DNA from: a virus
Reading direction: 5' to 3' (one strand)
Virus record (IMG/VR): IMGVR_UViG_3300023184_004167
Coordinates: 1-64,000 of that record
DNA length: 64,000 nucleotides
Shown: piece after piece, positions 1 to 62,415 of the stretch
Numbering within the stretch: position 1 is the first letter of the stretch
How the letters are laid out: each line of letters opens with the position of its first letter
Translations under genes and position numbers: made by a program
Notes under the pieces: model-generated
What the model saw: the letters and a program-made list of their open reading frames with translations, nothing else
Told to the model about the DNA's origin: nothing
The model's database searches: none

Positions 1-830
1 AAGGATTATTTTTATTCCCCTCATATCCAGTAACTTTTGATTACTAATTCTTAATACCGATTAGTTAGACTAATCACTCCTTGAGATATTGGTTACTCTC
101 TTACTACTCCACTCTCTTAAGCCTTGCGAGCTTACTCAGGATTCGACTCCTTAGAGGTTTTTGGTAAAAATACATATTGACTTGGGGTCTTTATGTGCCT
201 CTGACAGCCAGAGACTATGTAGGTACCTGTCACCAACATCTGACGGACACTTTTCCTTGATTGATTAATTTGATTAACTTATTCAAAGTTTTAGTGGTTA
301 GTGGATTGAAAAGGAAGCGGTCCGTCGCCAGCTCAGTTATCTTTTGAACAACCGAATACTAAACTCCCTTATGCAACATCCCTGTCGCCATATTTTTGCT
401 CATCTTCAAAACAAAACCCTTGGTAGAGTTAGGTTAAGGACAACAACAGCACCACCTGTACGATGTCATACCTTTCGGCTTTAAGACAACCTTAATATTG
501 GACTACGTAGTAATGAAGTTGGATAACAACATTTCCCACATAAGTCCTACGGATTATTCTTATTGATGTTCCCATCTCAACCTGACAACCCACATTGCCA
601 AGTAATTTAACCACATCTCCTACAGTGTTACCCTCGGGTACTGAGGTTAAATTATATTCCGCCTGTGTGCTTAAGATTATTACTAATCCGCAACTTACTT
701 AAACCAAGTAAGTCACTTTATCCCGATTTCTCGGTTTATTTGATGACTACACACCGCCAATTATCTTTTATCAGTAAACATCTCAAAATCAACCCGAAGG
801 TCTCATTATCAATATCCTGAATGGATAATA
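1..830 (-). ncRNA. Large structured ncRNA, GOLLD-like; 3' end probably just beyond window start
   Basis: No ORF of 60 aa or more in any frame and GC above the genome background. Dense hairpins on the - strand: ACC-UUCG-GGU (791-802), CCGA-GAAA-UCGG (723-734), ACUUACUU/AAGUAAGU (693-713), GAUUA-GUAA-UAAUC (675-688), GAUG-GGAA-CAUC (565-576), CC-GAAA-GG (471-478), UCGGUUGU/AUAACUGA (333-355), GAUUAG/CUAAUC (59-75), and a long-range GACGGAC/GUCCGUC helix (320-326 with 242-248). Size (~800 nt), phage context and an adjacent tRNA fit GOLLD; the family call is from recollection, not a covariance-model search. Confidence 0.7.
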
Positions 831-836
831 TTTTTA

Positions 837-847
837 TTCAAAGAACT
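837..847 (-). promoter_or_regulatory. boxA-like antitermination site before the large ncRNA
   Basis: AGTTCTTTGAA on the - strand just upstream of the structured RNA; resembles rrn boxA (TGCTCTTTAACA / AGTTCTTTGA). Confidence 0.55.
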
Positions 848-993
848 ATTAAATTTAAAGAAGATGCTGGAATATTTACAACCACCCATTCCCCCCACTT
901 GTAATCACCGATTTTATTTTTAATTTTAAAAATTACTTTCGGTAGGGAAAGAATAATGGAATCTTTACAACCCCATCTTCTTCATTTGTTTCA

Positions 994-1025
994 CAAAGTT
1001 AAGAAGAACTTTTCAATTAATCAAA
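994..1025 (-). promoter_or_regulatory. Bacteroidota sigma-70 promoter (P4)
   Basis: TTTG-N20-TAACTTTG on the - strand, matching the -33/-7 consensus. Confidence 0.85.
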
Positions 1026-1168: not shown

Positions 1169-1189
1169 TCTTTTTGAAACTTTTTTTTG

Positions 1190-1261
1190 TTTCGGGAGTT
1201 GGATTTGCACCAACGACTAAAAGCTTATGAGACTTTTCTGCTACTACTGCATTATCCCGAA
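1190..1261 (-). tRNA. tRNA-Met (CAT; could be Ile2), no encoded CCA
   Basis: TTCGGGA/TCCCGAA acceptor stem, TGC-AGTAGTA-GCA D arm, AAAGT-CTCATAA-GCTTT anticodon arm, GTTGG-TGCAAAT-CCAAC T arm. Confidence 0.85.
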
Positions 1262-1271
1262 ATATAATATA

Positions 1272-1282
1272 TTTAAAGAACT
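1272..1282 (-). promoter_or_regulatory. boxA-like site before the tRNA
   Basis: AGTTCTTTAAA on the - strand, 10 nt before the tRNA; same motif as 837-847. Confidence 0.5.
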
Positions 1283-1365
1283 AATTTTAAAAGAAGTCCC
1301 ACAAACTTTTAGGTTTTCTCAAACCATTCGTGGGACTCGGTGAGACTCTCATCTCATTTGTTTCA

Positions 1366-1480: not shown

Positions 1481-1512
1481 CAAAGATATAAAATATTTTT
1501 TAAAAAGTCAAA
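1481..1512 (-). promoter_or_regulatory. Bacteroidota sigma-70 promoter (P1)
   Basis: TTTG-N20-TATCTTTG. Confidence 0.75.
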
Positions 1513-1547
1513 AAAAATCCTGATAATTTTCATATCAGGACTTTTTT
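1510..1547 (-). terminator. Intrinsic terminator after the T9SS cargo gene
   Basis: TCCTGATA/TATCAGGA inverted repeat flanked by A and T tracts. Confidence 0.6.
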
Positions 1548-1564
1548 CATATTATGTTTTTTAT

Positions 1565-3679
1565 TTATTTCTGAACTAACATTCTAATGGTTTTTCTTGT
1601 ATTACCTATAATATATGTCACAAAATAAATACCATTTTGTAAATTACTATTGGTTATGGTTTTACTAAACACACCCAAATAACTTTGTGTTGTATAATTT
1701 CCAACCAATCTACTATACATATCAAATATTTGAATTTCAACTATTGAATTTTTTTGTGATGATGATTCAACATTTAAACTAAATGTACCATTATTTGGAT
1801 TTGGATATAAATTAACTTGGTCAATGGTTAAGTATTCATTACTCGCACCTCTTTGACCCACAGCACAATTTAAGTGTGTTAATGTTTTAGATACCGCAGC
1901 TCCTAATGCTCCACAAGTTGTTGAACTTTGTACTTTAAGTGCTCCTCCTCTAAACCCCGCATTAAATTGTAATGTTATAACAGAACTATCCATATTTGCA
2001 GATATGATTGTTGTTGATGCCGGTATTGTCCACCTAAATACAGTTATTGGTAATATTACTGAAGCCGCTGGTGATATTACAATGAAATTAACTGAACTTC
2101 CAATACAAGCATTATAGAATCCTGTATTTGAAATAAATGTAATTACTTTTGCCGGTGAGAATGATATTCCCTTTGCGGCTCCAAAATTTCCACAAGCCGA
2201 TTCCCCTTTAGCCGATAATCCCCCACCATTATAACCAGCATCAAAACTTAAATTAATTGAACTACTATCAGCATTTGCAGATATTATTGTTGTAAATGCA
2301 GGTTTAGTCCATCTGAATTTAATTGCGGGTACTTGTGCTATTGTAGGAATAGGATTTGTTAATGTATAATTAACTATTGCCCCAACACAAGGTGTTATTG
2401 TTCCATTTATTGCTGTTGGTGTTGGTGGTGCCGCTCTTGCAAATGCTAATGATGTTGCAGGTATTGAACCTATAGAATTACTTAATGAAACCGTAGCACC
2501 CCCTGAAGATTTTACAATAGTACTTATTGTATTAGTTCCTTGTCCGTTTGTTATGATATTACCAGCCCCACCTAAAACCCAAGCATAATAAACACCACTT
2601 TGATTCGCAACAGTGAATGTTCTAATTGTATCACATGTTTGAGGTTGAATTGAGGTTGTAATAGTAACAGGTGTTGGTAATCCTGTCGGCATTACACAAG
2701 TTCTTGTTATACTATCTGATGGGGGTGTACCCGTACAATTTGCAGGACTTGTTGTATAAGTTCTTATTTGAGTACCATTACTACAACTTGTCCATATTCC
2801 ATAAGTAAATGTACAAGGTAATCTACAAGTTCTTGTTATACTATCTGTTGGTGGTGTACCCGTACAATTTGCTGGACTTGTTGTATATGTTCTTGTTTGA
2901 GTTGTTCCGTTACAAGTTGTCCAACTACCATAAGTAAATGTACAAGGTAAACTACAAGCTCTTGTTATACTATCTGTTGGTGGTGTTCCAGTACATCCTG
3001 CAGGACTTGTTGTATATGTTCTTGTTTGAGTTGTTCCGTTACAAGTTGTCCAACTACCATAAGTAAATGTACACGCTGGTGGTGCAACATATTGATTTGA
3101 TGTTAATGATGTTGTGTAAACAAAATCACCTGTTTCATCACCACTATTATTACCTGCAACCGCTGCAATATAGAATTTAACTCTTGATTGTACCGCAGTT
3201 GGTACAGCTGGTGCAACCCAAGTTAAATTAGAATAAGTGTATGTTGCAGATGCCGTTGATGTTGGAGCATTTGCATGACTTAATTCATAATTACCATTTG
3301 CAATTGTTGGTGTTCCTTTTATGGATGTGTTAGTATTTTGTGTCACCCAAGTTCCAATAACTGCGTGAGTTAAAGTATCTATCGCTTTAATTGATACTCC
3401 CCATATTAATCTGTTTGCCGCAGAGTGAGTGATTTTAATGCTAAAAGGATATGATTGTCCTGCAGTAAATGTTGTAGGTAATCCGATAGCGGTTACACTA
3501 CCACCAGCAGGATTAACAGTTCCACTATGACAACTTGTGCAATTTCTTACTGTTGTACCGTTTAATGATGGTGCCGTTGAATATCCTGTCGGACAATTTG
3601 GATTACTTAAAACGAAAGCCGAACACATAAAAATTAATGTGGTTACAGCAATTAAAATTCTTTTGTTTAGTTTTTTCAT
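1565..3679 (-). CDS. Secreted T9SS type A sorting-domain protein (Reeler/choice-of-anchor V-like N-terminus with CxxCH, 3 TSP1-like repeats, Ig/PKD-like domains)
   Basis: Signal peptide; NCTSCH motif; Reeler-like 'WVAP...VKFYIAAVAGN'; C-terminal 'VNLYPNPNNGTF...GIYFV...RMLVQK', typical of a T9SS CTD. Confidence 0.85.
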   Translation of the reverse strand: MKKLNKRILIAVTTLIFMCSAFVLSNPNCPTGYSTAPSLNGTTVRNCTSCHSGTVNPAGGSVTAIGLPTTFTAGQSYPFSIKITHSAANRLIWGVSIKAIDTLTHAVIGTWVTQNTNTSIKGTPTIANGNYELSHANAPTSTASATYTYSNLTWVAPAVPTAVQSRVKFYIAAVAGNNSGDETGDFVYTTSLTSNQYVAPPACTFTYGSWTTCNGTTQTRTYTTSPAGCTGTPPTDSITRACSLPCTFTYGSWTTCNGTTQTRTYTTSPANCTGTPPTDSITRTCRLPCTFTYGIWTSCSNGTQIRTYTTSPANCTGTPPSDSITRTCVMPTGLPTPVTITTSIQPQTCDTIRTFTVANQSGVYYAWVLGGAGNIITNGQGTNTISTIVKSSGGATVSLSNSIGSIPATSLAFARAAPPTPTAINGTITPCVGAIVNYTLTNPIPTIAQVPAIKFRWTKPAFTTIISANADSSSINLSFDAGYNGGGLSAKGESACGNFGAAKGISFSPAKVITFISNTGFYNACIGSSVNFIVISPAASVILPITVFRWTIPASTTIISANMDSSVITLQFNAGFRGGALKVQSSTTCGALGAAVSKTLTHLNCAVGQRGASNEYLTIDQVNLYPNPNNGTFSLNVESSSQKNSIVEIQIFDMYSRLVGNYTTQSYLGVFSKTITNSNLQNGIYFVTYIIGNTRKTIRMLVQK
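2696..3073 (-). repeat. Three tandem 129 bp (43 aa) Cys/Trp repeats, thrombospondin-like
   Basis: CTFTYGSWTTCNGTTQTRTYTTSPAxCTGTPPxDSITRxC three times, near-identical at DNA level. Confidence 0.9.
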
Positions 3680-6648: not shown

Positions 6649-7500
6649 TTAATTTAATTCTATCTCCAATTGTTTTTTCTTATCAATAAACGCCTGAACC
6701 CTATCTCTCGCAACTTTAGTATATGTTTCACTTAACTCAATTCCAATCCATTGTCTATCTAATATTTCTGCTGCCACACAACTTGTTCCACTACCAGCGA
6801 ATGGGTCAAGGACAATGTCATTCTTATATGTAAGAATCTTTATCGCCTTACTCGGAATGTCCATTGAGAATGTAGCCTTCGTCATTTGTTTGGTATCATT
6901 CAAATACTTCCATTGTCCAAATACCAACTCCATAAAGTCTTTCTTATCTTGCTCCTGATACACAACCTTTTTCTTGATTGTACCATCTTCCATTTCAATA
7001 TCCGTAGGAACACCCTCCCATTGTGGGACGCCCTTAACTTTCTTAATATGTTGTTTCTTGTAAGCAAGAATAACACATTCCTTCGGATTATAGATATATG
7101 GTGACGATGGACTCATCCAAGAACCCCAAGCAGTAGTCTTACTTCTGTGGGGACTATCTTCTTCTAAATCAACAACACCAAAAAATTTAAACCCAACCTT
7201 CTTCATAACCGCCCAAAACTCAGAAACAAAGAATACTCTACCCCCACGAGTTTGAACATTTGTCTCATACGGAATATTAATACTAACTCTACCATCATCT
7301 TTGATGACTCTATATACTTCAGTCAACCATTTCTCAGTAAAGTCCCAATACTCATCCATTATCAGTTCATCATTATGTGTATCATATTTAATACCCACAT
7401 TGTATGGGGGGCTGGTACAAACTAAGTCAATACTGCTCTCAGGAAATGTTCCCATAACATCAATACAATCTCCGTTTATAATTCTATTTGTTTCTATCAT
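6649..7500 (-). CDS. DNA methyltransferase (N4-C/N6-A, beta class)
   Basis: 'TSPPYN' motif IV before 'VLDPFAGSGT' motif I. Confidence 0.95.
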   Translation of the reverse strand: MIETNRIINGDCIDVMGTFPESSIDLVCTSPPYNVGIKYDTHNDELIMDEYWDFTEKWLTEVYRVIKDDGRVSINIPYETNVQTRGGRVFFVSEFWAVMKKVGFKFFGVVDLEEDSPHRSKTTAWGSWMSPSSPYIYNPKECVILAYKKQHIKKVKGVPQWEGVPTDIEMEDGTIKKKVVYQEQDKKDFMELVFGQWKYLNDTKQMTKATFSMDIPSKAIKILTYKNDIVLDPFAGSGTSCVAAEILDRQWIGIELSETYTKVARDRVQAFIDKKKQLEIELN

Positions 7501-19574: not shown

Positions 19575-20414
19575 CTAATAATTTGTAATTAACAATTCTT
19601 CCGCTAAATTTTGTTTTACACCTTTTTTCGCCGCGGCCGCTTTGGCAAATGATTTTTTATGCCAATTATACACATTTTCAGGAAACCAAGTATGTAATTC
19701 AGGAAAATCATAATATGACATAGAAAACTTACCCTGAACTTGTTGTAAGACATTTGCTAATCTTTCATGGTCTGCTCTTCCAAAATCATGATTAGAATAA
19801 TAATTTTCAGTTTTATAGTATGGGGGGTCTAGATAGATATATGTCTTTTCTGAATCATATTTCTTGATAACATCCTCAAAGTCCATATTCTCAACATCCG
19901 TAATCTTAAGAAAGTGTTCAACCCAATCAGGCTTACTTAACTTATCCCTAAATGACAAATACTTACAGCGATACTTACCCTTTAAATCAATAAAGGAAGA
20001 TGTCTCAGGCTTACTACCACTAAACACCTGAGTTAATACATAAACATATTTAGCGGCAACTTGATAATCAGGATAGTTAATTGTAAAACCACTACCAAAC
20101 ACTTCTGATTGATACTCTTTAAATGTTTCTCTATATGTGTCAGGAGTTTGTATTGTTCCTATTTGTTGAACCTGTATTCCATCCAATGCTCTTTGCAGTT
20201 CGGACGGATTCTGAACACATCTGAATAGATTGTAATTTAGTGGATTAAAGTCATTATAAACAACTTTCTTTAGGTTTGGGTACTTGGATAAGTCCATATT
20301 ATAAAAACACCAGAACATACCTCCAAATGTCTCTAAATACACCTCCATATCTTGTGGATATAAATCCACAATCCATTTACCAATTTTTGATTTTCCTCCT
20401 ATATAACTTAACAT
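19575..20414 (-). CDS. DNA adenine methyltransferase (D12/Dam class)
   Basis: 'YIGGKS', 'ETFGG', 'YLDPPY', 'ELLITNY'. Confidence 0.9.
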   Translation of the reverse strand: MLSYIGGKSKIGKWIVDLYPQDMEVYLETFGGMFWCFYNMDLSKYPNLKKVVYNDFNPLNYNLFRCVQNPSELQRALDGIQVQQIGTIQTPDTYRETFKEYQSEVFGSGFTINYPDYQVAAKYVYVLTQVFSGSKPETSSFIDLKGKYRCKYLSFRDKLSKPDWVEHFLKITDVENMDFEDVIKKYDSEKTYIYLDPPYYKTENYYSNHDFGRADHERLANVLQQVQGKFSMSYYDFPELHTWFPENVYNWHKKSFAKAAAAKKGVKQNLAEELLITNY

Positions 20415-20487: not shown

Positions 20488-20628
20488 ATGACAGAAAAAA
20501 AAGATTGTAAAACCTGCAAAAAACAAAAATTAAATCTACAAGACTGGTTAATGGTTATTGTTGGATTCTATATGTTATCAACATCTATCTATGGAACAAT
20601 CCATTTGATTAGACATTTTATGAATTAA
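20488..20628 (+). CDS. Small membrane protein with CxxC (46 aa, not in ORF track)
   Basis: MTEKKDCKTCKK followed by a hydrophobic helix; fills the gap between genes. Confidence 0.55.
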   Translation: MTEKKDCKTCKKQKLNLQDWLMVIVGFYMLSTSIYGTIHLIRHFMN

Positions 20629-21542
20629 TTTCGTTCAAACTTTACATTAAGTTTGACATACATATCCCCACCATTGTACCCCTTACCTTTTAATCTCAAA
20701 GGTTTGGAACTATCAAATATTTTTGGTGCCTGAGTATTTAAATCCCCACTAGGATGTGGGATTCTAAAAGAATCACTTTTAACTTCATCCAGATTTAAAA
20801 ACAAATTATAAATCAAATCATTATTCATTTTTTCATACCCGTCTTTAGGTTCCACCTCAACTTGAATAACCAAATCCCCATAAACACCATTAACAAAATC
20901 ACCATAATTTTCAAGTTTCATATACTGCCCATTATCAATACCCACAGGTAATTTTATATTTATCTCTTGAGTCTCAGATTTTTTTCCACTACCAGAACAA
21001 AAATAACATTTATGTATCAATGTATATCCTCTACCACTACAAATATCACAAGCAGTTCTAATCTGTTGAACCATAAACCCAGTTCCAAATTGTTTAACAA
21101 TATATCCTGAACCGCCACATCCACCACACTTTTGTTGCTCACCACCAGAACCATTACACCCCTGACATTGACTTTCTTTAAAATAAGTTATTTTTTTCTC
21201 TGAACCCAAATAAGATTCAATTGGACTAATGTTAACTTTAACTATTTTTGCCGGTGCTGTTGGTTGTCTCCTTTGTTGAAAGGGATTCTGTCCCCCAAAC
21301 ATTTGTGAGAATATATCTTCAAACTGAGTACCACCATAAGGATTCTTTCTCTGTTTATCATATTGAGCCCTTTTGTTTGTGTCAGATAACACCTCAAACG
21401 CCTCAGCAATATCTTTAAATTTTTCCTCCCCATCAGGATTAACATCGGGGTGAAACTCCTTTGATAACTTCCTATATTGTTTTTTTATGTCCTCGGAGGT
21501 AGAAGACTCTTCAATTCCTAAAATATTGTAGTAATTTTTCAT
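20625..21542 (-). CDS. dnaJ: DnaJ chaperone
   Basis: J domain with HPD, four CxxCxGxG repeats, C-terminal domain. Confidence 0.95.
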   Translation of the reverse strand: MKNYYNILGIEESSTSEDIKKQYRKLSKEFHPDVNPDGEEKFKDIAEAFEVLSDTNKRAQYDKQRKNPYGGTQFEDIFSQMFGGQNPFQQRRQPTAPAKIVKVNISPIESYLGSEKKITYFKESQCQGCNGSGGEQQKCGGCGGSGYIVKQFGTGFMVQQIRTACDICSGRGYTLIHKCYFCSGSGKKSETQEINIKLPVGIDNGQYMKLENYGDFVNGVYGDLVIQVEVEPKDGYEKMNNDLIYNLFLNLDEVKSDSFRIPHPSGDLNTQAPKIFDSSKPLRLKGKGYNGGDMYVKLNVKFERN

Positions 21543-29231: not shown

Positions 29232-30032
29232 TTATAGATAGTCAAACAGAACACTTGACTCGTTCCTTAACTTTCTCAATGCTTTTTCTTTAATCTGACG
29301 AACTCTTTCCTTTGTTAAATCAAAATCATTTCCGATATCTTCAAGAGTTCTTTGTCCACCTGATAACCCAAAATAATCCTCAATTATAACTTTCTCCCTT
29401 TCATCCAAAACATCAAGGATTGATATTAATTTTTCTCTTAATGTCTCTTCTGTTGAGAATCCTGCTTCAGGTTTATCAGCATTTTTATTCTCTAAAACAT
29501 CCAATAGTGTATCACCATCTTCATTCAATGGGTTATCCAAATTTACGGTATAAGGTAATGTTACAAATTTGTCAGGCATATCTAACCCTGTAATATCTTG
29601 GGATTTTTTTGCCTTCTGAAGTTCCTGAACAACATTAACAGGAAATCTAATGGTACGAGAATTCTCATTCAAAGATTGTAAAATTGCTTGTCTAACCCAC
29701 CAAACAGCATAAGATATAAATCTTAAGTTCTTAGTCCAATCAAACGTCTCAATAGCCCTTAATAACCCGTAATTCCCTTCAGCAATTAAATCAGATAAAT
29801 CTAACCCCTGATTTTGATATTGTTTACTTACAGTAATCACAAACCTTAAATTACCTTCAAGAATTTCTTTTTTAATTTCCGCCCTTTGTTTTTCATCCAT
29901 CCTACCTGATAACATTTGTACTGCCAACTCCTTTTCTCTTGCCGGAGTCATAACTTTAAGTTTCCTGATGTCTTTCAAGTAAGAAGAAATCTCTTCTTGA
30001 TTAATTGCAATTGTCTGATTTTTATCTTTCAT
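29232..30032 (-). CDS. RNA polymerase sigma-70 factor (Bacteroidota RpoD-like)
   Basis: 'NLRFVITVSKQYQNQGL.LSDLI.EGN.GL', 'FISYAVWWVRQAILQ', region 4 'TLEDIG..F.LTKERVRQIKEKALRKLR'. Confidence 0.95.
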   Translation of the reverse strand: MKDKNQTIAINQEEISSYLKDIRKLKVMTPAREKELAVQMLSGRMDEKQRAEIKKEILEGNLRFVITVSKQYQNQGLDLSDLIAEGNYGLLRAIETFDWTKNLRFISYAVWWVRQAILQSLNENSRTIRFPVNVVQELQKAKKSQDITGLDMPDKFVTLPYTVNLDNPLNEDGDTLLDVLENKNADKPEAGFSTEETLREKLISILDVLDEREKVIIEDYFGLSGGQRTLEDIGNDFDLTKERVRQIKEKALRKLRNESSVLFDYL

Positions 30033-31116: not shown

Positions 31117-32013
31117 TTATTCTTTAGTTCTTTTTATTATTAAAATTTCGTGAGAGTCTTTTGAATTACCTATACCCATTTCTTTTCTATTTTTTCCTAT
31201 CCTTTTTTCCCCGTTCCCCATTGAATAATTCCATTTAGGGAAAAATTGTTCAAACTCAGAATAATAATTTCTAATGGTTTCACAATTATTATAAGACAAA
31301 ACAAAATCTCCATTATGTTCCCTTAGTAAGTCTCTAAGTTTTTCGTGATTAAAAGAATTATGATGTACTGGTATGTTTCTCATCGGATATATCCCAGTAA
31401 ACATTTTATTATCTTCATCTTTTTCTAAATAATATGGAGGGTCAAGATATAAAAATTCGTCAGGATTTTTTGTGATTACATTTTCAAAATCAGATTCAAA
31501 AACACTAAGTGTAGGACAATTAAAATTTCTAATAATTTCAACCATTTTTGACCATTTTTTGTCATTTAAATAAACGGATGACGCCCAACCCAAATATCCA
31601 GGTCCATAAGATGTGTTATGATTAAAATAATAATAGGATGCCGCTGTTATTTTATCTAGTTCAACAGAATTATCTCTTTTATAATGGTTAGTTTTCCAAT
31701 TTGATAGCATCACTTGGGTTTTATCCCAAGTCATTAATACTTCTTTAACTCTATCATATTCTTCGGTTGTTGGTTCAATTGTTTTTAATTTATCCGCTAA
31801 TTCATTTGGATTATCTAATAACACGTTCCAAAAATTAACAAGTGCGTCAAATATGTCGTACCCAATTACTATTTTACCTAATGACGCCAAGTGAACCTCT
31901 AAAGAACCTCCACCAATAAATGGTGATATAATTTTATCATAATCTTTAATAAACGGCATTATTTGTTTTATCGCTCTTGTCTTACCTCCAGCATATCTAA
32001 TGGGTGTTTTCAT
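31117..32013 (-). CDS. DNA adenine methyltransferase (D12 class), putative cognate MTase of the adjacent nuclease
   Basis: 'RYAGGK', 'SPFIGGGS', 'YLDPPY'; ATGA overlap with the upstream gene. Confidence 0.9.
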   Translation of the reverse strand: MKTPIRYAGGKTRAIKQIMPFIKDYDKIISPFIGGGSLEVHLASLGKIVIGYDIFDALVNFWNVLLDNPNELADKLKTIEPTTEEYDRVKEVLMTWDKTQVMLSNWKTNHYKRDNSVELDKITAASYYYFNHNTSYGPGYLGWASSVYLNDKKWSKMVEIIRNFNCPTLSVFESDFENVITKNPDEFLYLDPPYYLEKDEDNKMFTGIYPMRNIPVHHNSFNHEKLRDLLREHNGDFVLSYNNCETIRNYYSEFEQFFPKWNYSMGNGEKRIGKNRKEMGIGNSKDSHEILIIKRTKE

Positions 32014-56148: not shown

Positions 56149-59100
56149 TTATGGTGCCACCCCACCATCTATTATTGTCCAATTATATGTTACACCCGTT
56201 AAAGTGTCTTTACCCGCTTGTGCGGTTGCTCCGCTATATTTTAGTCCACCAAAATTAACATTTGTTAAATTTGTTTGTAATGGTTTGGTTGACCAAGAAA
56301 TTAATATGTTGTTGTAATTATCAACCGAATAATTACTTGAGGTTTTACCTGTCATAAAGTTTTGGAAATTGCTCACATTATTTGGACTCCAATTACTAAT
56401 ATCTTGATTAAACGCTGTATTATTAAAGAACATAGATGACATATTAGTAACAGCAGTTACAGTCCATCCAGAAATATCAGGATTTCCATCATTATTAAAT
56501 ACGGAATTTTTAAACATATCTGACATATTTAGAACATTTGAAACATTCCAAGAACTAATGTTTTGATTAAATATTCCGTTTCCGTTAAACATTCCTGTCA
56601 TATCTGTAACCGCACTTAAAGAATTACCCCAATTACCTATTGGTTGGTTAAATGCGTCGGAATTACTAAACATTCTTGCGGTTGTAAAACAACTATTTAA
56701 TGTCCAAGCAGAAATTGATGGGTCTCCTCCATTATTAAAATATAAATTGGAACTAAACATATCATCAATCCTTTTAACATTTGACATATTCCAATTTCCA
56801 ATATTTTTATTAAACACTCCTCCGGCAAACATATTTCTCATACCGCTCAAAGTACTCAGTGATGTAACATTAGAAACATCCCAACTTCCAATTGGTTGGT
56901 TAAATGTATTGTTCAAATAGAACATATGTCCCATATCAGTACAAGCAGAAGTTGTCCATCCACTAATTCCTGGGTCTCCACCATTATTGAAAGTTGTAGA
57001 TGAACCACCACCAGCAAACATATAATTCATCTGATTTGCCCTAATATAAGATTTGTACCCATAATCATTAGGAAAATTTCTTTCCCAATTCGTAATATTT
57101 CTATTAAATGCATATGCCAAATGGAACACATATCCCATTGACCCCCCTCCTGTTGCCGCCGATGTTGTCCAACCACTAATACTATTACTCCCCGCATTGT
57201 CAAAAACAAATGCACTATCAAACATTGTATAAAATGAAGTTACTTTGTGTGTATCCCAATTACCAATATCTTTATTGAATTTTCTAGCATTAGCGAACAT
57301 ATATGACATATCTGTGACCGCAGAAACAGTCCATCCACTCAAATCATCATTAAAATTAAGAGCGGAGTTGAAAGTACTATTCATACTAACTACTTTAGAT
57401 GTATCCCAATTATTAACATTGTTAATTGTAGTTAAAGAACTACATCCATTGAATAAAGATGCTAAATTTGTTGTCCCACTTAAATTCAACACATCTGTAA
57501 CACCTGTCAACACCAAATTGGAACACCCATAGAAGTGTCCTGTTGATGTTGTACCACTGCCCAATTGAAGTGGGCCCCATTTCAATACTTCAACAAGTTT
57601 TAATTTATCACCCGAATTATTAAATGCCCATCCTTTTAGATTGCCCGGGTCGGCATAAATGTTAATTGTGTAAGTTCCAGGTGATGAATATGTATGAGTT
57701 AATGCAGAGTCATTCCAAGTACTAACATAATCATTGGTTGAGCTATCTCCCCAATTAATAATACAATTATAATTTGTTCCCGTACCACTAATAAATGGTA
57801 ATTTAACTTGGTCAGAATTACTTGAACCAACACTTGTATTTGTTGTTGTAAATCTTCCTGTAAAATTAATTAATGGTCTAGTAGGCGTTTGAGTCATTGT
57901 TGGGGTTTGCGTCGGAGTTTCGGTATTTGTAGGTGTGTTTGTTGGGGTTTGCGTCGGAGTTTCGGTATTTGTAGGTGTATTTGTTGGTGTGGGTGTATTT
58001 GTTGGAGTTTCAGTATTTGTTGGGGTTTGCGTCGGAGTTTCGGTATTTGTAGGTGTGTTTGTTGGCGTTTGAGTCGGAGTTTCAGTATTTGTTGGCGTTT
58101 GACTTTGTGTTGATGTATTTGTTGGCGTTTGAGTCGGAGTTTCAGTATTTGTTGGCGTTTGTGTATTTGTTGGCGTATTTGTTGGTGTAGGTGTAGGCGT
58201 GGGTACGTGTAAACAAGTACTACAATCAGGATAAACTTGGTATACCTGATTAACATTAGAATTAGAAGATAAATTAGCATCATCCCTATCATATTTCACA
58301 CAAAAACTACTAGTTGTACTACCGCTAGATATTTGAGCATACATATATGTTCCAACACTTACAAAAGTATTACCATACGCTAAATTATTATTAACATAAT
58401 ATTGATTATATGGTGGTTCACAACTAATCAACACTTTAATACCAGGACAATTAAATGGTGGGTCTAAAACAACAAAAGTTGCTTTACCCGAAATTTGAGT
58501 CTTATTTGGTGTCATTGTTGGTGTTGCTGTAACTGATGGTGTCGGCGTTGAAGATGTTTTTGCAATACTAAAATCAACCCCCACAATATAAACAGGACTA
58601 TTTGATGGTGTTGGTGTAACCCCAAAATTTGTAATGTTAAACTCAACATCACCACAATCTATTGCCGGTGTTGGAGTTACTGGGGGAACATATTCACAAT
58701 CAAAATAAGCATAAAAATCTAATAAATCACAATTAACCGGGGGTGTTGGTGCTGGTGGACAATCTCCAACAGCAAATGTATTTGATGCCAAATCAGGACA
58801 ATCCGAATAACAAGGACTTTTTCCTTCTAAAACACAAGGATTACCTAACCCATCACTTAAACACCACTTATTTGAAACATCAAAAAATAAATAACCAACT
58901 AAATCAGTTCCTCCTGTATAATATATCTTTGAATTATAACTTAATGTTGTTGAACTATATGTTCCATTATATCCTGATAATGAGGAAAAGGTTGTTGAAA
59001 AACAATATGATGGATTTGGACAAGGTAATGGTGTTGGTGAAGGTGTTGGTGTATTTGTTGGTGTTGGATTTGGAGTTCTTGTAGGGGTTGGTGTTGGTAC

Positions 59101-59757
59101 ACAATATTTACAATTATCAAATAATGGTGAACCTAAATTAGTACCACCAGGTCCTGAGAACTCAACAAACGCATAACATTCGCTATTATATATATAAGCG
59201 GCACCAATAAATGCCGTGTCTAAATCAACATTAAAATAATAAAGAGTACCATCAGAACATTTTGATAAAGTTGCCGCCGCACTACTTGTTCTTGGACAAA
59301 TAACATTTCCACAATCATCAACTAATGTAAATGTAACTGAATTGGCGTCATATAATGGCCCAGAACCATCATTTGCAATAATTGTTGCACAACCTGTATA
59401 TTCTCCAAATCCATCTACATAGTAGATATTTCCAACTATTGTTGGTATTATATTACCATAAAATCTGAAAACATTTTCACCATTTTCACAATCTCTGAAT
59501 TGTACCGTAGTTGCAGAACAAGTACCACTAAATTTAATAATCCCACTAACAACTTCAAAACAACTTGTGCCTCCATTAGGTATATCGGAATAAAATCCTG
59601 TTGGTGCGATAATAGAACAACCACTATCGGTATATAAATCACCATTTATAGTTAATGCGGTGTCGGTAGAATAATAATCACTACCTGAAGGTATTGAACA
59701 CGCATCATTACAATTAGTTCCAGTATATGATAATTTACCAATAAAGTTACACGCCAT
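56149..59757 (-). CDS. Large putative virion adhesin: Cys-rich domains, PT linkers, PKD-like domain, BspA/DUF285 repeats
   Basis: 'WGD...HTY..PGTYTI'; repeats 'FNQPIG.WDVSNVT.M..MF'. Confidence 0.85.
57886..58203 (-). repeat. Near-perfect Pro-Thr tandem repeat ([10 protein letters not shown] units)
   Basis: Repeated GCGTCGGAGTTTCGGTATTTGT / GAGTCGGAGTTTCAGTATTTGT blocks. Confidence 0.9.
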
Positions 59758-60043: not shown

Positions 60044-60286
60044 TTAAGGTGTATTACAACCTATTATCTTAAATGTCTCACATCCATTAGACGCACTCAA
60101 AATTAACATTATTGATTCAATTGTATTGAACAATGGTGGAGGATATTGATATACTGTCGGAGGAACGGGTGTTGATGTTGCGCCCGTTATTGTACCAATA
60201 AAATATCTGTTCTCACCACGATAATCCGCAACATACACATCAATTGGTGTGTTCCCCGAAACTTCTGTGAATTCTATTTGTGTCAT
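60044..60286 (-). CDS. Stand-alone small domain protein (paralog of 55122-55343)
   Basis: 'SGNTPIDVYV.D..G....FI.TI...VPP...SNGCE'; ATGA overlap. Confidence 0.7.
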   Translation of the reverse strand: MTQIEFTEVSGNTPIDVYVADYRGENRYFIGTITGATSTPVPPTVYQYPPPLFNTIESIMLILSASNGCETFKIIGCNTP

Positions 60287-62415
60287 AAGGTACAATTAAT
60301 ATCATATTCAATAACCAAACTAACCTTTATATCCAATACTGTTATATCAACATTTCTATCATTGATAATGGTTATTTGATTGTTAGTTTCATCAATGATA
60401 ACATCCCCAATTCCAATAATACTCATCAGTAATGTTTTTATTGAATCATACCATAGATTATCATCAGGAGATACAAGAAGAGATGTTGTAGTAAAGAATG
60501 TGTCAGTAATTTCAATACCATAGGGGTTTGCATTTACTTTTGTTGTAAAGGTTGCTGATATTAACCCACAATCAGTATGTCCAGAAGTTATATCAAAATA
60601 GCCCTCATTTAACATCTTTGATAAACTATATTTAGAACTTGATTCTATTTGGAAGGTTTGTTCTCCCATTATAAATGTCTGATAAGAAACAATGTTCTTA
60701 CTTCCTTCTATTGTTGTTGTTCTATTTAATGATGATTTATTACCATCAATAATTGTTAAACTATATGTTCCCGCAGTTAACCCATCAACAAAAATTGTTT
60801 GGGGATTACCATCAACATTATTTGACCAATTAAAAGTAAACGGAGGTGTTCCCGAAGATATCAATGCCGTTATTGTTCCATCACTACCAATACCCGCAGA
60901 TGTTGGATATAATAAAAAATCAACGGGTGCATTATATTCAACATAAACCTGAGATGTTTGAACACAACCATTAGCATCAGAAACTGATATTCCGTGTTGT
61001 CCTGACGACACTTTATAAAAAGTGGTTGCACTTAAAGTTGTTCCAACAATACCGATATCACCATCTAAAAAATAATTATATGGTGGAGTCCCACCACTTG
61101 TTTTAATAACTTCAATAACACCATTAGCCTGTCCAAATGTTGTTCCAGTGGTTTGTGTTGATATGGTAAACTTATTTTCAGTTATCAATGTATAATCATT
61201 CATAAAAGTACAACCTGACGCATCTTCAACAACAAGAGTATATGTTCCTGAACTTAAATAAGAAAATAAATTAAATTGTAATGAACTTACAACATTTTTT
61301 GAACTACTATCAGGATAAATAAGTGTATAATTATATGGATTGTTTCCCCCAACTAAACTCACAGCTATTGAACCCCCTTCATCAGAACAATTAGAGTTTT
61401 CTGATACAACATTAACAGATGTCATTCCGCTAGGTGTACTTAAAGTTGTACCAACAGACACAGAACAAAATGCTGCGTCTGTAACTAAAAATGAATATGC
61501 CCCCGCCCCAACATCACTTAATGTAAAAATCCTTGAATAAGAAATTTCAACATATCCTGTTGATGCTGAATAATAAAAAGGTGCAGTACCTCCAGTTAAT
61601 GTCAAAGTTAATGAACCATCATTACTTAAACAAGATGGTGGGTTTGCGGTAAATAACACAACAGATAATGGTGCGACATCTGTAATTGTTGCGGTTCTAA
61701 TTTGAGTACAATTTAAAGAATCTGTAACTCTAACAGCATATTCACCAGCGGTTAAACCTGTAATAGAACTTGTTGTCTCACCATTGTTCCATATGTATGT
61801 ATATGGTGAAACTCCAGTCTGCCCTGTAACATATATCTTACCTAATGGTGTATATCCGCAAGCCGCATTTGGAACCACATATAAACCAAAATCAAGTGGT
61901 GAAGATTCTTCAATAATAAATGTTTCACTTCTACCTGTACAACCGCCAGCATCTAACGCAACCATATAATATGTTCCCGCACTTAAATTTTGAAAAAGCC
62001 CTATATTAACAAGTGTATCAGTATAATTAACATAAGTCCCACCCGAATCATATAAATAAAATTGAGTGTATGAATATTCTGATGATGAAGTACCTGTTAC
62101 AATTCCATTATTCTCCCCACAAGTTGTTGCTTGAACTCCATAAACATAACAACAAACACCATTAGAAATAGGGGCATTTACATAAATTTCATTGTTAAGG
62201 GGTAGTGAGCTATCATTTATTCTTATTGCGTATGTACCTGCGTAGAGTCCACTTCTTGTTGAGGCGGTAACCTCAATATCTGTACCTAAATCCGGTGTAA
62301 CCCATTGAATGTTATATGGTGCTGTCCCCCCATACGCCACAATATTGATTTCTCCAGACCCTGTCTGTGAACAATCACCACTTATTACTACTATTTGATA
62401 CCCTAAGTCTGCCAT
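60283..62415 (-). CDS. SprB-repeat-containing putative virion protein
   Basis: About seven repeats of 'G.I.....GGT.PY.Y.W...L.AG.Y...V.D..GC'. Confidence 0.8.
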   Translation of the reverse strand: MADLGYQIVVISGDCSQTGSGEINIVAYGGTAPYNIQWVTPDLGTDIEVTASTRSGLYAGTYAIRINDSSLPLNNEIYVNAPISNGVCCYVYGVQATTCGENNGIVTGTSSSEYSYTQFYLYDSGGTYVNYTDTLVNIGLFQNLSAGTYYMVALDAGGCTGRSETFIIEESSPLDFGLYVVPNAACGYTPLGKIYVTGQTGVSPYTYIWNNGETTSSITGLTAGEYAVRVTDSLNCTQIRTATITDVAPLSVVLFTANPPSCLSNDGSLTLTLTGGTAPFYYSASTGYVEISYSRIFTLSDVGAGAYSFLVTDAAFCSVSVGTTLSTPSGMTSVNVVSENSNCSDEGGSIAVSLVGGNNPYNYTLIYPDSSSKNVVSSLQFNLFSYLSSGTYTLVVEDASGCTFMNDYTLITENKFTISTQTTGTTFGQANGVIEVIKTSGGTPPYNYFLDGDIGIVGTTLSATTFYKVSSGQHGISVSDANGCVQTSQVYVEYNAPVDFLLYPTSAGIGSDGTITALISSGTPPFTFNWSNNVDGNPQTIFVDGLTAGTYSLTIIDGNKSSLNRTTTIEGSKNIVSYQTFIMGEQTFQIESSSKYSLSKMLNEGYFDITSGHTDCGLISATFTTKVNANPYGIEITDTFFTTTSLLVSPDDNLWYDSIKTLLMSIIGIGDVIIDETNNQITIINDRNVDITVLDIKVSLVIEYDINCTL

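Follow-up and report, generated by a model that had tools for sequence, protein, structure and literature searches.

What is encoded in a stretch of some 850 nt, at the very end of a phage contig, over which hardly any open reading frame (ORF) can be drawn, and how would so long an untranslated RNA be made? The question is raised by the left end of a 64,000-nt stretch of viral DNA (the window: positions 1 to 64,000 of IMG/VR record IMGVR_UViG_3300023184_004167, and hence the opening part of a linear record, 138,365 bases long, for which CheckV estimates 46% completeness). From the letters alone, the original prediction had placed at 1..850 a highly structured phage RNA of ~830 nt, either of the GOLLD type or a new giant RNA, in a jumbo phage of Bacteroidota, with a boxA-like site at its 5′ end and expression like that of an rRNA. 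GOLLD, an established family of very large, ornate RNAs borne by phages, was reportedly first described by Weinberg et al. 2009. We conclude that the window from ~846 to 1 on the minus strand is very probably the gene of a GOLLD RNA in a large, probably jumbo, freshwater phage of Bacteroidota, and that the last ~45 nt of the gene and its terminator have been lost at the contig end. All features of the locus described below lie on the minus strand unless the plus strand is named.

Family membership of the RNA

Compared with Rfam 15 at the gathering scores set by its curators, the complete window yielded only two matches: one tRNA, and GOLLD (RF02032) at 371..1 on the minus strand, with 251.8 bits (E value 1.9e-70) against a gathering score of 150 bits. 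The match spans model positions 1-381 of 416 and is flagged as truncated on the 3′ side, base 1 of the window being also base 1 of the record; in a search of the whole record GOLLD scored 215.7 bits. Complete relatives score 324.9 (L250), 324.1 (L048), and 287.3 bits (L101) over the full GOLLD model. The prediction of a GOLLD-type RNA is thus confirmed despite the missing end, and the alternative of a new giant RNA is set aside, since the threshold of the family is passed; the scan gave neither an intron nor an rRNA match.

Relatives were collected with a degenerate 25-base GOLLD motif, which retrieved 99 IMG/VR loci. Every one of them could be aligned to window 1-1000 in reverse complement; for most the alignment runs from ~856 to 1 at ~68-72% identity, and for L048 and L034 it begins at ~998. 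They represent 74 distinct sequences, of which the 52 longer than 1,200 nt were aligned with the window (alignment A1, n = 53) and the 22 shorter ones excluded. Conservation in A1 is high from window ~770 to 1, and homology with the relatives starts at ~856-846, in keeping with the predicted length of ~830 nt and 5′ limit near 850. The closest relative, L250, carries a complete RNA, is 79% identical to the window over 1,554 nt, and presents the same order of elements: tRNA, promoter repeats, leader, GOLLD, and terminator. Among GenBank phages there was a single weak match, LR745206.1 (634,780 bases, deposited without annotation), which on later covariance scoring proved to contain a full GOLLD; this locus (L101, LR745206.1:419066-422688) lies behind two tRNAs. 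The contigs bearing relatives measure 200-635 kb overall (up to 308 kb for those from IMG/VR), and the metagenome runs that hold the sequence are from lake and freshwater samples. The motif was found at no locus in the prokaryote genome collection; the GOLLD model found nothing in 5 and nothing in 151 sampled Bacteroidota genomes, a result of little weight since 14 control genomes also gave none. Within the data searched, this GOLLD lineage is seen in viral contigs alone.

Features of the sequence itself on which the prediction had been based could also be recovered. Specifically, i) only three ORFs, of 40-51 amino acid residues (aa), overlap 1-850, and the GC content of this stretch is 37.6%, compared with 31.7% across the window as a whole and 30.1% over 851-1600, so that the stretch is all but free of ORFs and enriched in GC as claimed; ii) the minus strand folds at -227.7 kcal/mol (z -4.07, with 0 of 20 shuffles as good) and the plus strand at -173.4 kcal/mol (z -1.56, with 2 of 20 shuffles as good); iii) the consensus structure mapped on 847..1 comprises 19 terminal hairpins, where at least 12 had been noted in the prediction, and 173 of its 180 pairs are standard; iv) five GNRA loops (GAAA at 731-726 and 477-472, GGAA at 573-568, GGGA at 383-378, and GCAA at 128-123) and one UUCG loop (798-795) are read on the minus strand, as had been noticed; and v) long-range helices are present, for example one that joins 241-233 with 92-84 (helix 28 of the consensus) and shows changes on both sides in 8 of its 10 pairs. 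The strand is fixed as minus because many G-U pairs are invariant among the relatives and turn into A-C mismatches on the plus strand (for example A1 columns 156/264, 194/219, 221/260, and 272/389).

The fold is upheld by covariation among homologs. RNAalifold on A1 gives 185 consensus pairs, 133 of them with pair-keeping changes on both sides, compared with 36-56 such pairs after a shift of the 3′ partners by 1-3 columns; paired cells amount to 97.7%, compared with 39.5-44.1% for the shifted partners; the covariation score is 0.491, compared with at most 0.116 in the controls; and in four of the five measures the observed value is reached by none of 500 shuffles. Helices 2-23 lie in the 5′ half (window ~770-380) and helices 24-38 in the 3′ domain, whose structure, including long-range helices labelled as pseudoknots such as helix 28, is likewise marked by compensatory changes. 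The two-domain fold is kept by such changes in both halves, and the 5′ half, for which Rfam has no model, is as well supported by covariation as the rest.

The RNA can be divided accordingly. The conserved 3′ domain (1..371) coincides with the RF02032 match and lacks the ~45 nt, including the terminator hairpin, that the contig start removes. The 5′ domain (372..830), which holds helices 2-23, lies outside the Rfam model, falls within the region of ~70% identity to the relatives (~856 to 1), and contains a variable insertion with the UUCG hairpin at about 825-770. Within the 3′ domain an A/U-rich, poorly conserved linker at 251..312 is unpaired both in the Rfam consensus and in A1 (columns 663-746), and has its counterpart in a linker that is disordered in the solved GOLLD structure. 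When 372-1600 was compared with Rfam at loose thresholds, no family was found for the 5′ domain (372-846) at E values up to 1 beyond rows at chance level; Hatchet (E value 0.55) and RAGATH-25 (E value 0.54), both listed for 372-1600, were rejected as such rows.

The missing 3′ end and the readings that compete with GOLLD

The RNA spans window ~846 to 1, and ~45 nt are absent. Beyond the point that matches window base 1, the relatives go on for some 45 columns, closing with a hairpin and T-run, so that the complete RNA would measure ~890 nt from the boxA-like word, or ~1,030 nt from the nearest promoter. The original prediction had looked for the 3′ end further to the left; base 1 of the window is the start of the contig, and its own record therefore offers no such extension, nor could the missing tail (taken from L250) be matched elsewhere in the 138,365 bases, whereas the relatives do supply the ~45 nt with their terminator-like end. 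Contigs assembled from three sequencing runs (X7, X20, and X1) extend 32-40 nt beyond window base 1.

These data bear on whether the locus might be something other than a GOLLD gene truncated by assembly. That it is a decaying, non-functional remnant without a 3′ end could be argued from the Rfam match, which stops at model position 381 of 416; we think this very unlikely, given that the break falls exactly at contig base 1, that the contigs of three runs go on for 32-40 nt, and that all but seven of the 180 consensus pairs are intact. Still less credible is a new class of giant RNA that merely resembles GOLLD: the 5′ half (372-846) does lack an Rfam model match, and 5′ regions of GOLLD are described as less conserved, but such divergence is itself on record as a trait of the family, the 3′ domain exceeds the gathering score by 100 bits despite its cut end, and complete relatives reach 287-325 bits across the whole model. 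Nothing except the high structure content speaks for an intron, a fragment of an rRNA, or protein-coding DNA that escaped notice, and we give these readings practically no credence; the only families found in the window at gathering thresholds are GOLLD and one tRNA, the ORFs that overlap the stretch are just three and short, and the substitutions among relatives preserve base pairs rather than a reading frame.

As an RNA class, then, the stretch adds nothing: it is an ordinary member of a known one. It shares with GOLLD (RF02032) the 3′ domain recognized by the covariance model, a length above 800 nt, the division into two domains, the variable unstructured linker, a phage-borne location next to tRNA-Met, and a probable kissing loop with a self-complementary dinucleotide. 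No family-defining feature distinguishes it; the differences are that this copy is cut by the contig end, that it has a leader of ~130 nt with a long hairpin before boxA which is shared with L250, L048, and L034 alone, and that this group of phages has promoters of Bacteroidota type together with a boxA-like leader. ROOL (RF03087), an ornate RNA described by Weinberg et al. 2017 (PMC5737381), is similar in being a large, cage-forming RNA found near tRNAs in phages and prophages; its sequence and fold are unrelated, and it has no match in the window in the Rfam scan.

A putative intersubunit kissing loop

According to the cryo-EM study of Kretsch et al. 2025 (PMC12286853), env-38 GOLLD, an RNA of 833 nt whose gene follows that of a Met-tRNA, assembles as a 14-mer into a closed cage with D7 symmetry in which the 5′ domains are the caps, the 3′ domains are the ring, and the disordered linker faces the interior; one symmetric kissing loop shows GC/CG switching at nt 656-657. 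The window has a hairpin at 139..151 with the loop AGUCGAA, in which a self-complementary CG occupies 145-144 (Rfam model positions 238-239). Judging from the correspondence of Rfam model positions, hairpin 151-139 is the likely counterpart of the symmetric intersubunit kissing loop L21a (bridge B8). The central dinucleotide of the loop is CG in 15, GC in 36, and AU in 2 of the A1 sequences, and is thus self-complementary in 53 of 53, a pattern that fits a subunit contact which has been kept. By analogy with env-38, the RNA may assemble with its own copies into a closed cage; weighing against this extension are the facts that cage assembly is taken over from a relative and that the window copy is incomplete. 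The published ideas about a role for the cage are that it holds tRNAs, ribosomes, or other cargo during infection, and these are neither supported nor excluded by our data.

We also observed that, in A1 columns 843-878 (window ~152-117), two adjoining hairpins of the 3′ domain switch together: GGAGUCGAAUCC accompanies the loop CGCAAG in 15 sequences including the window, and CCCGCAAGG accompanies GGGGAGGCAUCCUC. This paired switching suggests that the two loops, which may be in contact, change in concert.

Promoter-like repeats, leader, and tRNA upstream of the RNA

Four tandem promoter-like motifs lie upstream of the RNA and point toward it. P1 (TTTG-N20-TAACTTTG, 994..1025) is the nearest and belongs to copy 1 of a 69-nt repeat; P2 (1137..1168) belongs to copy 2; P3 (1366..1397), upstream of the tRNA-Met unit, belongs to copy 3; and P4 (1481..1512) is the most upstream. 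The combination of TTTG at -33 and TAnnTTTG at -7 is what we take to be the promoter consensus of Bacteroidota. In the window TTTG-N17-22-TAnnTTTG occurs 17 times compared with 5.9 expected, a number reached by none of 100 shuffles. The four units fall within 530 nt (982-1512), and three of them sit in the 69-nt direct repeat, the copies of which are 80-83% identical and each preceded by an A-run; in the related phages, 0-5 such motifs are found per 3-kb locus on the strand of GOLLD.

Between P1 and the RNA the window has an extra leader of ~130 nt (848..990), interposed between promoter and boxA; its fold is a single long hairpin, with 975-966 and 869-860 as the two sides of the stem. At -36.2 kcal/mol (z -2.99) the leader, 848-990, folds better than any of 200 shuffles. 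It is confined to a sub-lineage made up of the window, L250 (93.8% identical), and L048 and L034 (74.9%); outside these three relatives only the promoter part of the leader finds a match. In all three the boxA-like word stands 145 nt after the -7 box, compared with 26-28 nt in 35 of 50 relatives. The leader, which lies at 1243-1417 in L250, also contains a 16-nt internal repeat (957-972 and 868-883 in the window). As a probe, a 14-base word from the leader was too unspecific, hitting more than 119 mostly unrelated loci among which only L250 proved related.

The only tRNA of the window, a tRNA-Met with anticodon CAT, lies at 1189..1261, 333 nt upstream of GOLLD on the same strand, and was called both by Rfam (57.3 bits, 1261..1190) and by ARAGORN. 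A same-strand tRNA neighbors GOLLD, within at most 500 nt upstream or 300 nt downstream, in 19 of 52 relatives, and is tRNA-Met(CAT) in 17 of them. Ten nucleotides upstream of the window tRNA stands a second boxA-like element, GTTCTTTAAA (1272..1281), itself preceded by a strong leader hairpin at 1294..1338; this leader (1362-1262) folds at -28.7 kcal/mol (z -4.68), again with 0 of 200 shuffles as good. In L250 the same second element is found 20 nt before the tRNA.

Two further short segments adjoin the promoters. A unit of ~90 nt between P2 and P1 (1040..1132) has paired ends (UUUCGG...CCGAAA), as does a promoter-driven unit at 1418-1478 (UUGGGG...CCCCAA). Neither gave a tRNA call or an Rfam match, and neither folds better than its shuffles (1040-1132, -19.6 kcal/mol, z -0.98; 1418-1478, z -0.44). 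The cluster of RNA genes is bounded by a terminator-like hairpin and T-run at 1509..1549, which closes the ORF at 1565-3679; no terminator-like site was found on the minus strand between 1549-1509 and base 1.

A boxA-like word before GOLLD and in 16S leaders

The 5′ edge of the conserved RNA is marked by the boxA-like element GTTCTTTGAA (837..846). The prediction of a boxA-like site at this end has held up: the word is present at the GOLLD 5′ end of 50 of 53 loci, two of the three exceptions reading GTTCTTAGAA, and it is the same as that of a leader element of Bacteroidota rRNA operons. A -7-type box ends 26-28 nt upstream of the word in the 35 of 50 relatives mentioned above, and between box and word lies a 5-bp tetraloop hairpin that is paired in 83%, compared with 13-48% when the partners are slid; all 5 pairs show changes on both sides, which is modest support given that the structure was drawn from the same sequences.

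GOLLD is not the only setting of the word. Another nine sense copies stand 27-28 nt after a promoter motif, and of 15 antisense copies at least 10 lie in convergent promoter units. It precedes tRNAs in the window, in L250, and in LR745206.1, where a hairpin and GTTCTTTGAA are found before both a tRNA and GOLLD. In the window GTTCTTTRAA has two matches in 64 kb, both on the minus strand (846-837 and 1281-1272).

For rRNA leaders, we examined 80 loci around a 16S probe site, mostly of Bacteroidota by title, 71 of which have at least 150 nt upstream. In 20 of these 71 loci, GTTCTTTGA is found in the 300 nt that precede 16S. It has 21 hits there, 18 of them at -91 to -136, which make up all but four of its 25 occurrences in the 192,714 bases, both strands counted; the four lie elsewhere. 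The 16S leader of 5 further loci contains GTTCTTTAA. Loci bearing the word belong to Bacteroidales, Marinilabiliales-like genera, Lentimicrobiaceae, Chryseobacterium, and Crocinitomicaceae. GTTCTTTGA was absent from the sampled 16S loci of Flavobacteriaceae, where we infer another word or another layout. An extended rRNA-leader word (boxA followed by ATTGA) was tried and dropped, being present at 8 of 53 GOLLD 5′ ends compared with 12 of 20 rRNA leaders.

Is the locus built like an rRNA operon?

In the rrn operons of E. coli and in the nut sites of lambda, boxA serves processive antitermination that depends on NusB and NusE. By analogy, the GOLLD gene would sit in a unit with the layout of an rRNA operon: four host-type promoters in tandem would drive transcription in the same direction with no terminator between them; the co-oriented tRNA would belong to the same unit; and each stable RNA is preceded by a hairpin and by what would be the boxA word of the host's rRNA leaders, which reads GUUCUUUGAA at GOLLD and GUUCUUUAAA at the tRNA. 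The word would be a binding site for host NusB/NusE and their partners, which would render RNA polymerase fast and resistant to termination over 0.9-1.4 kb of folded, untranslated RNA. The factors needed for NusB-NusE binding would have to come from the host, because no gene for S10, NusB, or NusG was found in the 138-kb record, which at 46% completeness is no evidence of their absence from the phage. The likeness to rRNA leaders with boxA lies in a promoter-proximal hairpin followed by a U-rich boxA word, the word standing 91-136 nt before 16S in many Bacteroidota, and in tandem promoters, a tRNA within the unit, and a long untranslated structured product; the differences are that the product is not an rRNA, that the record has yielded no Nus factor gene, and that the window element is far from its promoter. 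On balance we lean, by a modest measure, toward a unit resembling an rRNA operon in which the boxA word would bind host Nus factors. The wider proposal, that Bacteroidota phages make GOLLD and tRNA-Met from miniature mimics of rRNA operons and thereby recruit the host complex for antitermination and RNA chaperoning to make and fold a 0.9-kb RNA, is offered more tentatively, and our confidence in it stops somewhat short of even.

Several observations weigh against such a unit. Early placement in the transcript after a hairpin is found in 35 of 50 relatives, and in the window the element follows the -7 box at ~147 nt, with the long hairpin between, rather than at the 26-28 nt of most relatives. 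Two matches to GTTCTTTRAA in the window are not unusual, 0.96 being expected and 2 being reached by 23 of 100 shuffles, and a generic sigma-70 scan of the window finds 9 promoters compared with 8.0 expected, which is chance level. Among the 16S leaders, 51 of 71 lack the exact word, nearly all Flavobacteriaceae among them; the match to the host would fail if the host were one of those that lack it. The 16S-leader element itself is presumably a boxA, a name it owes to its position and to the boxA sequences of other phyla. The core of the word is invariant at the GOLLD 5′ end, so that covariation cannot separate a protein site from a structural or processing element. Finally, RNA libraries can hold DNA, and the contigs assembled from them (see below) show presence, neither strand nor level.

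The invariance of GUUCUUUGAA leaves room for a different explanation, less probable in our judgment and yet a real contender, in which the element belongs to the RNA proper, for instance by pairing with the 3′ tail in a closing helix or by making a tertiary contact, or else marks the place at which the leader is cleaved off, and its resemblance to rRNA leaders is a coincidence or reflects a shared RNase site. A RIBOSUM-scored fold does pair columns 4-10 with a downstream segment, which the default fold leaves unpaired; by inspection, UCUUU could form 5 pairs with an invariant AAAGA just past base 1 in the relatives; and the distance from the promoter in the window is unlike that of a promoter-proximal boxA. 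Yet the word also recurs 27-28 nt from the promoter in units free of GOLLD and before tRNAs, and both word and position match the 16S leader element. A piece of the GOLLD fold is hard to hold as an explanation, because the same word and spacing are found in units without GOLLD; a processing site is compatible with both the GOLLD-free units and the 16S leaders. Between these readings we continue to prefer the antitermination unit, at the modest strength stated above.

Presence in RNA libraries and in the literature

Six RNA runs hold part of the stretch, and we compared contigs from three of them, which belong to three studies. The contigs, of 516-612 nt, cover ~1-660 with 9-18 differences (~97-98% identity), and are therefore contigs of close relatives that attest to presence only; 865-972 and 1189-1600 have no cover by RNA contigs, those available being from diverging relatives. 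That the RNA would be expressed like an rRNA, and at a very high level, as the original prediction proposed, is suggested by signals in the DNA.

In full-text literature, supplements lying outside the search, we found no pairing of GOLLD with Bacteroidetes or Bacteroidota, nor any Bacteroidota-type promoters or boxA leader for GOLLD, for which a prior mention may exist. In PMC12990946, "antitermination" occurs only in a reference on T-boxes.

The phage and its probable host

The remainder of the window points to Bacteroidota. The ORF at 1565-3679 (minus strand), adjacent to the RNA gene cluster, encodes 704 aa with a C-terminal sorting domain of the type IX secretion system (T9SS), and the ORF at 60283-62415 (minus strand) encodes 710 aa with SprB repeats. 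A large phage of Bacteroidota is a well-supported reading of these data, because a T9SS sorting domain and SprB repeats coincide with -33/-7 promoters of Bacteroidota type. The predicted jumbo phage of Bacteroidota is in line with this gene content, with the 17 promoter motifs where 5.9 were expected, with a 138-kb record that is only 46% complete, and with relatives on contigs of 200-635 kb. PHROG families found include a primase, an SbcC-like nuclease, an exonuclease, and a phage sigma factor.

Other genes of the window deserve a brief mention. Within the ORF at 1565-3679, three copies of an 85-nt direct repeat, 129 nt apart, extend over 2653-2995 and would correspond to protein repeats of 43 aa. 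A third large ORF, 56149-59757 (minus strand; 1,202 aa), has four DUF285 stretches and adjoins the SprB protein; both resemble surface-protein genes of host type. There are also genes for a sigma-70 family factor with regions 2 and 4 (phrog_351), a full DnaJ, and three DNA methyltransferases, one of them N6/N4 and two Dam-like; as a group the sigma factor, DnaJ, and methyltransferase ORFs occupy 29232-30032, 20625-21542, 6649-7500, 19575-20414, and 31117-32013 on the minus strand.

Implications for GOLLD RNAs

We wish to stress that the contribution of this locus, a modest one, lies in the setting and the control of a known RNA. A freshwater "lake" lineage of GOLLD can be tied to large phages of Bacteroidota, and at least 99 IMG/VR loci provide a deep alignment of the 5′ domain that Rfam leaves unmodelled. 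What the locus adds to existing knowledge is confined to the conserved module in which promoter, hairpin, and boxA follow one another, and which provides a testable idea of how a long untranslated RNA may be transcribed. If true, the proposed mimicry of rRNA operons would be the first mechanistic handle on the production of GOLLD, and phages beyond the lambdoid N and Q systems would be seen to employ boxA in a new way.

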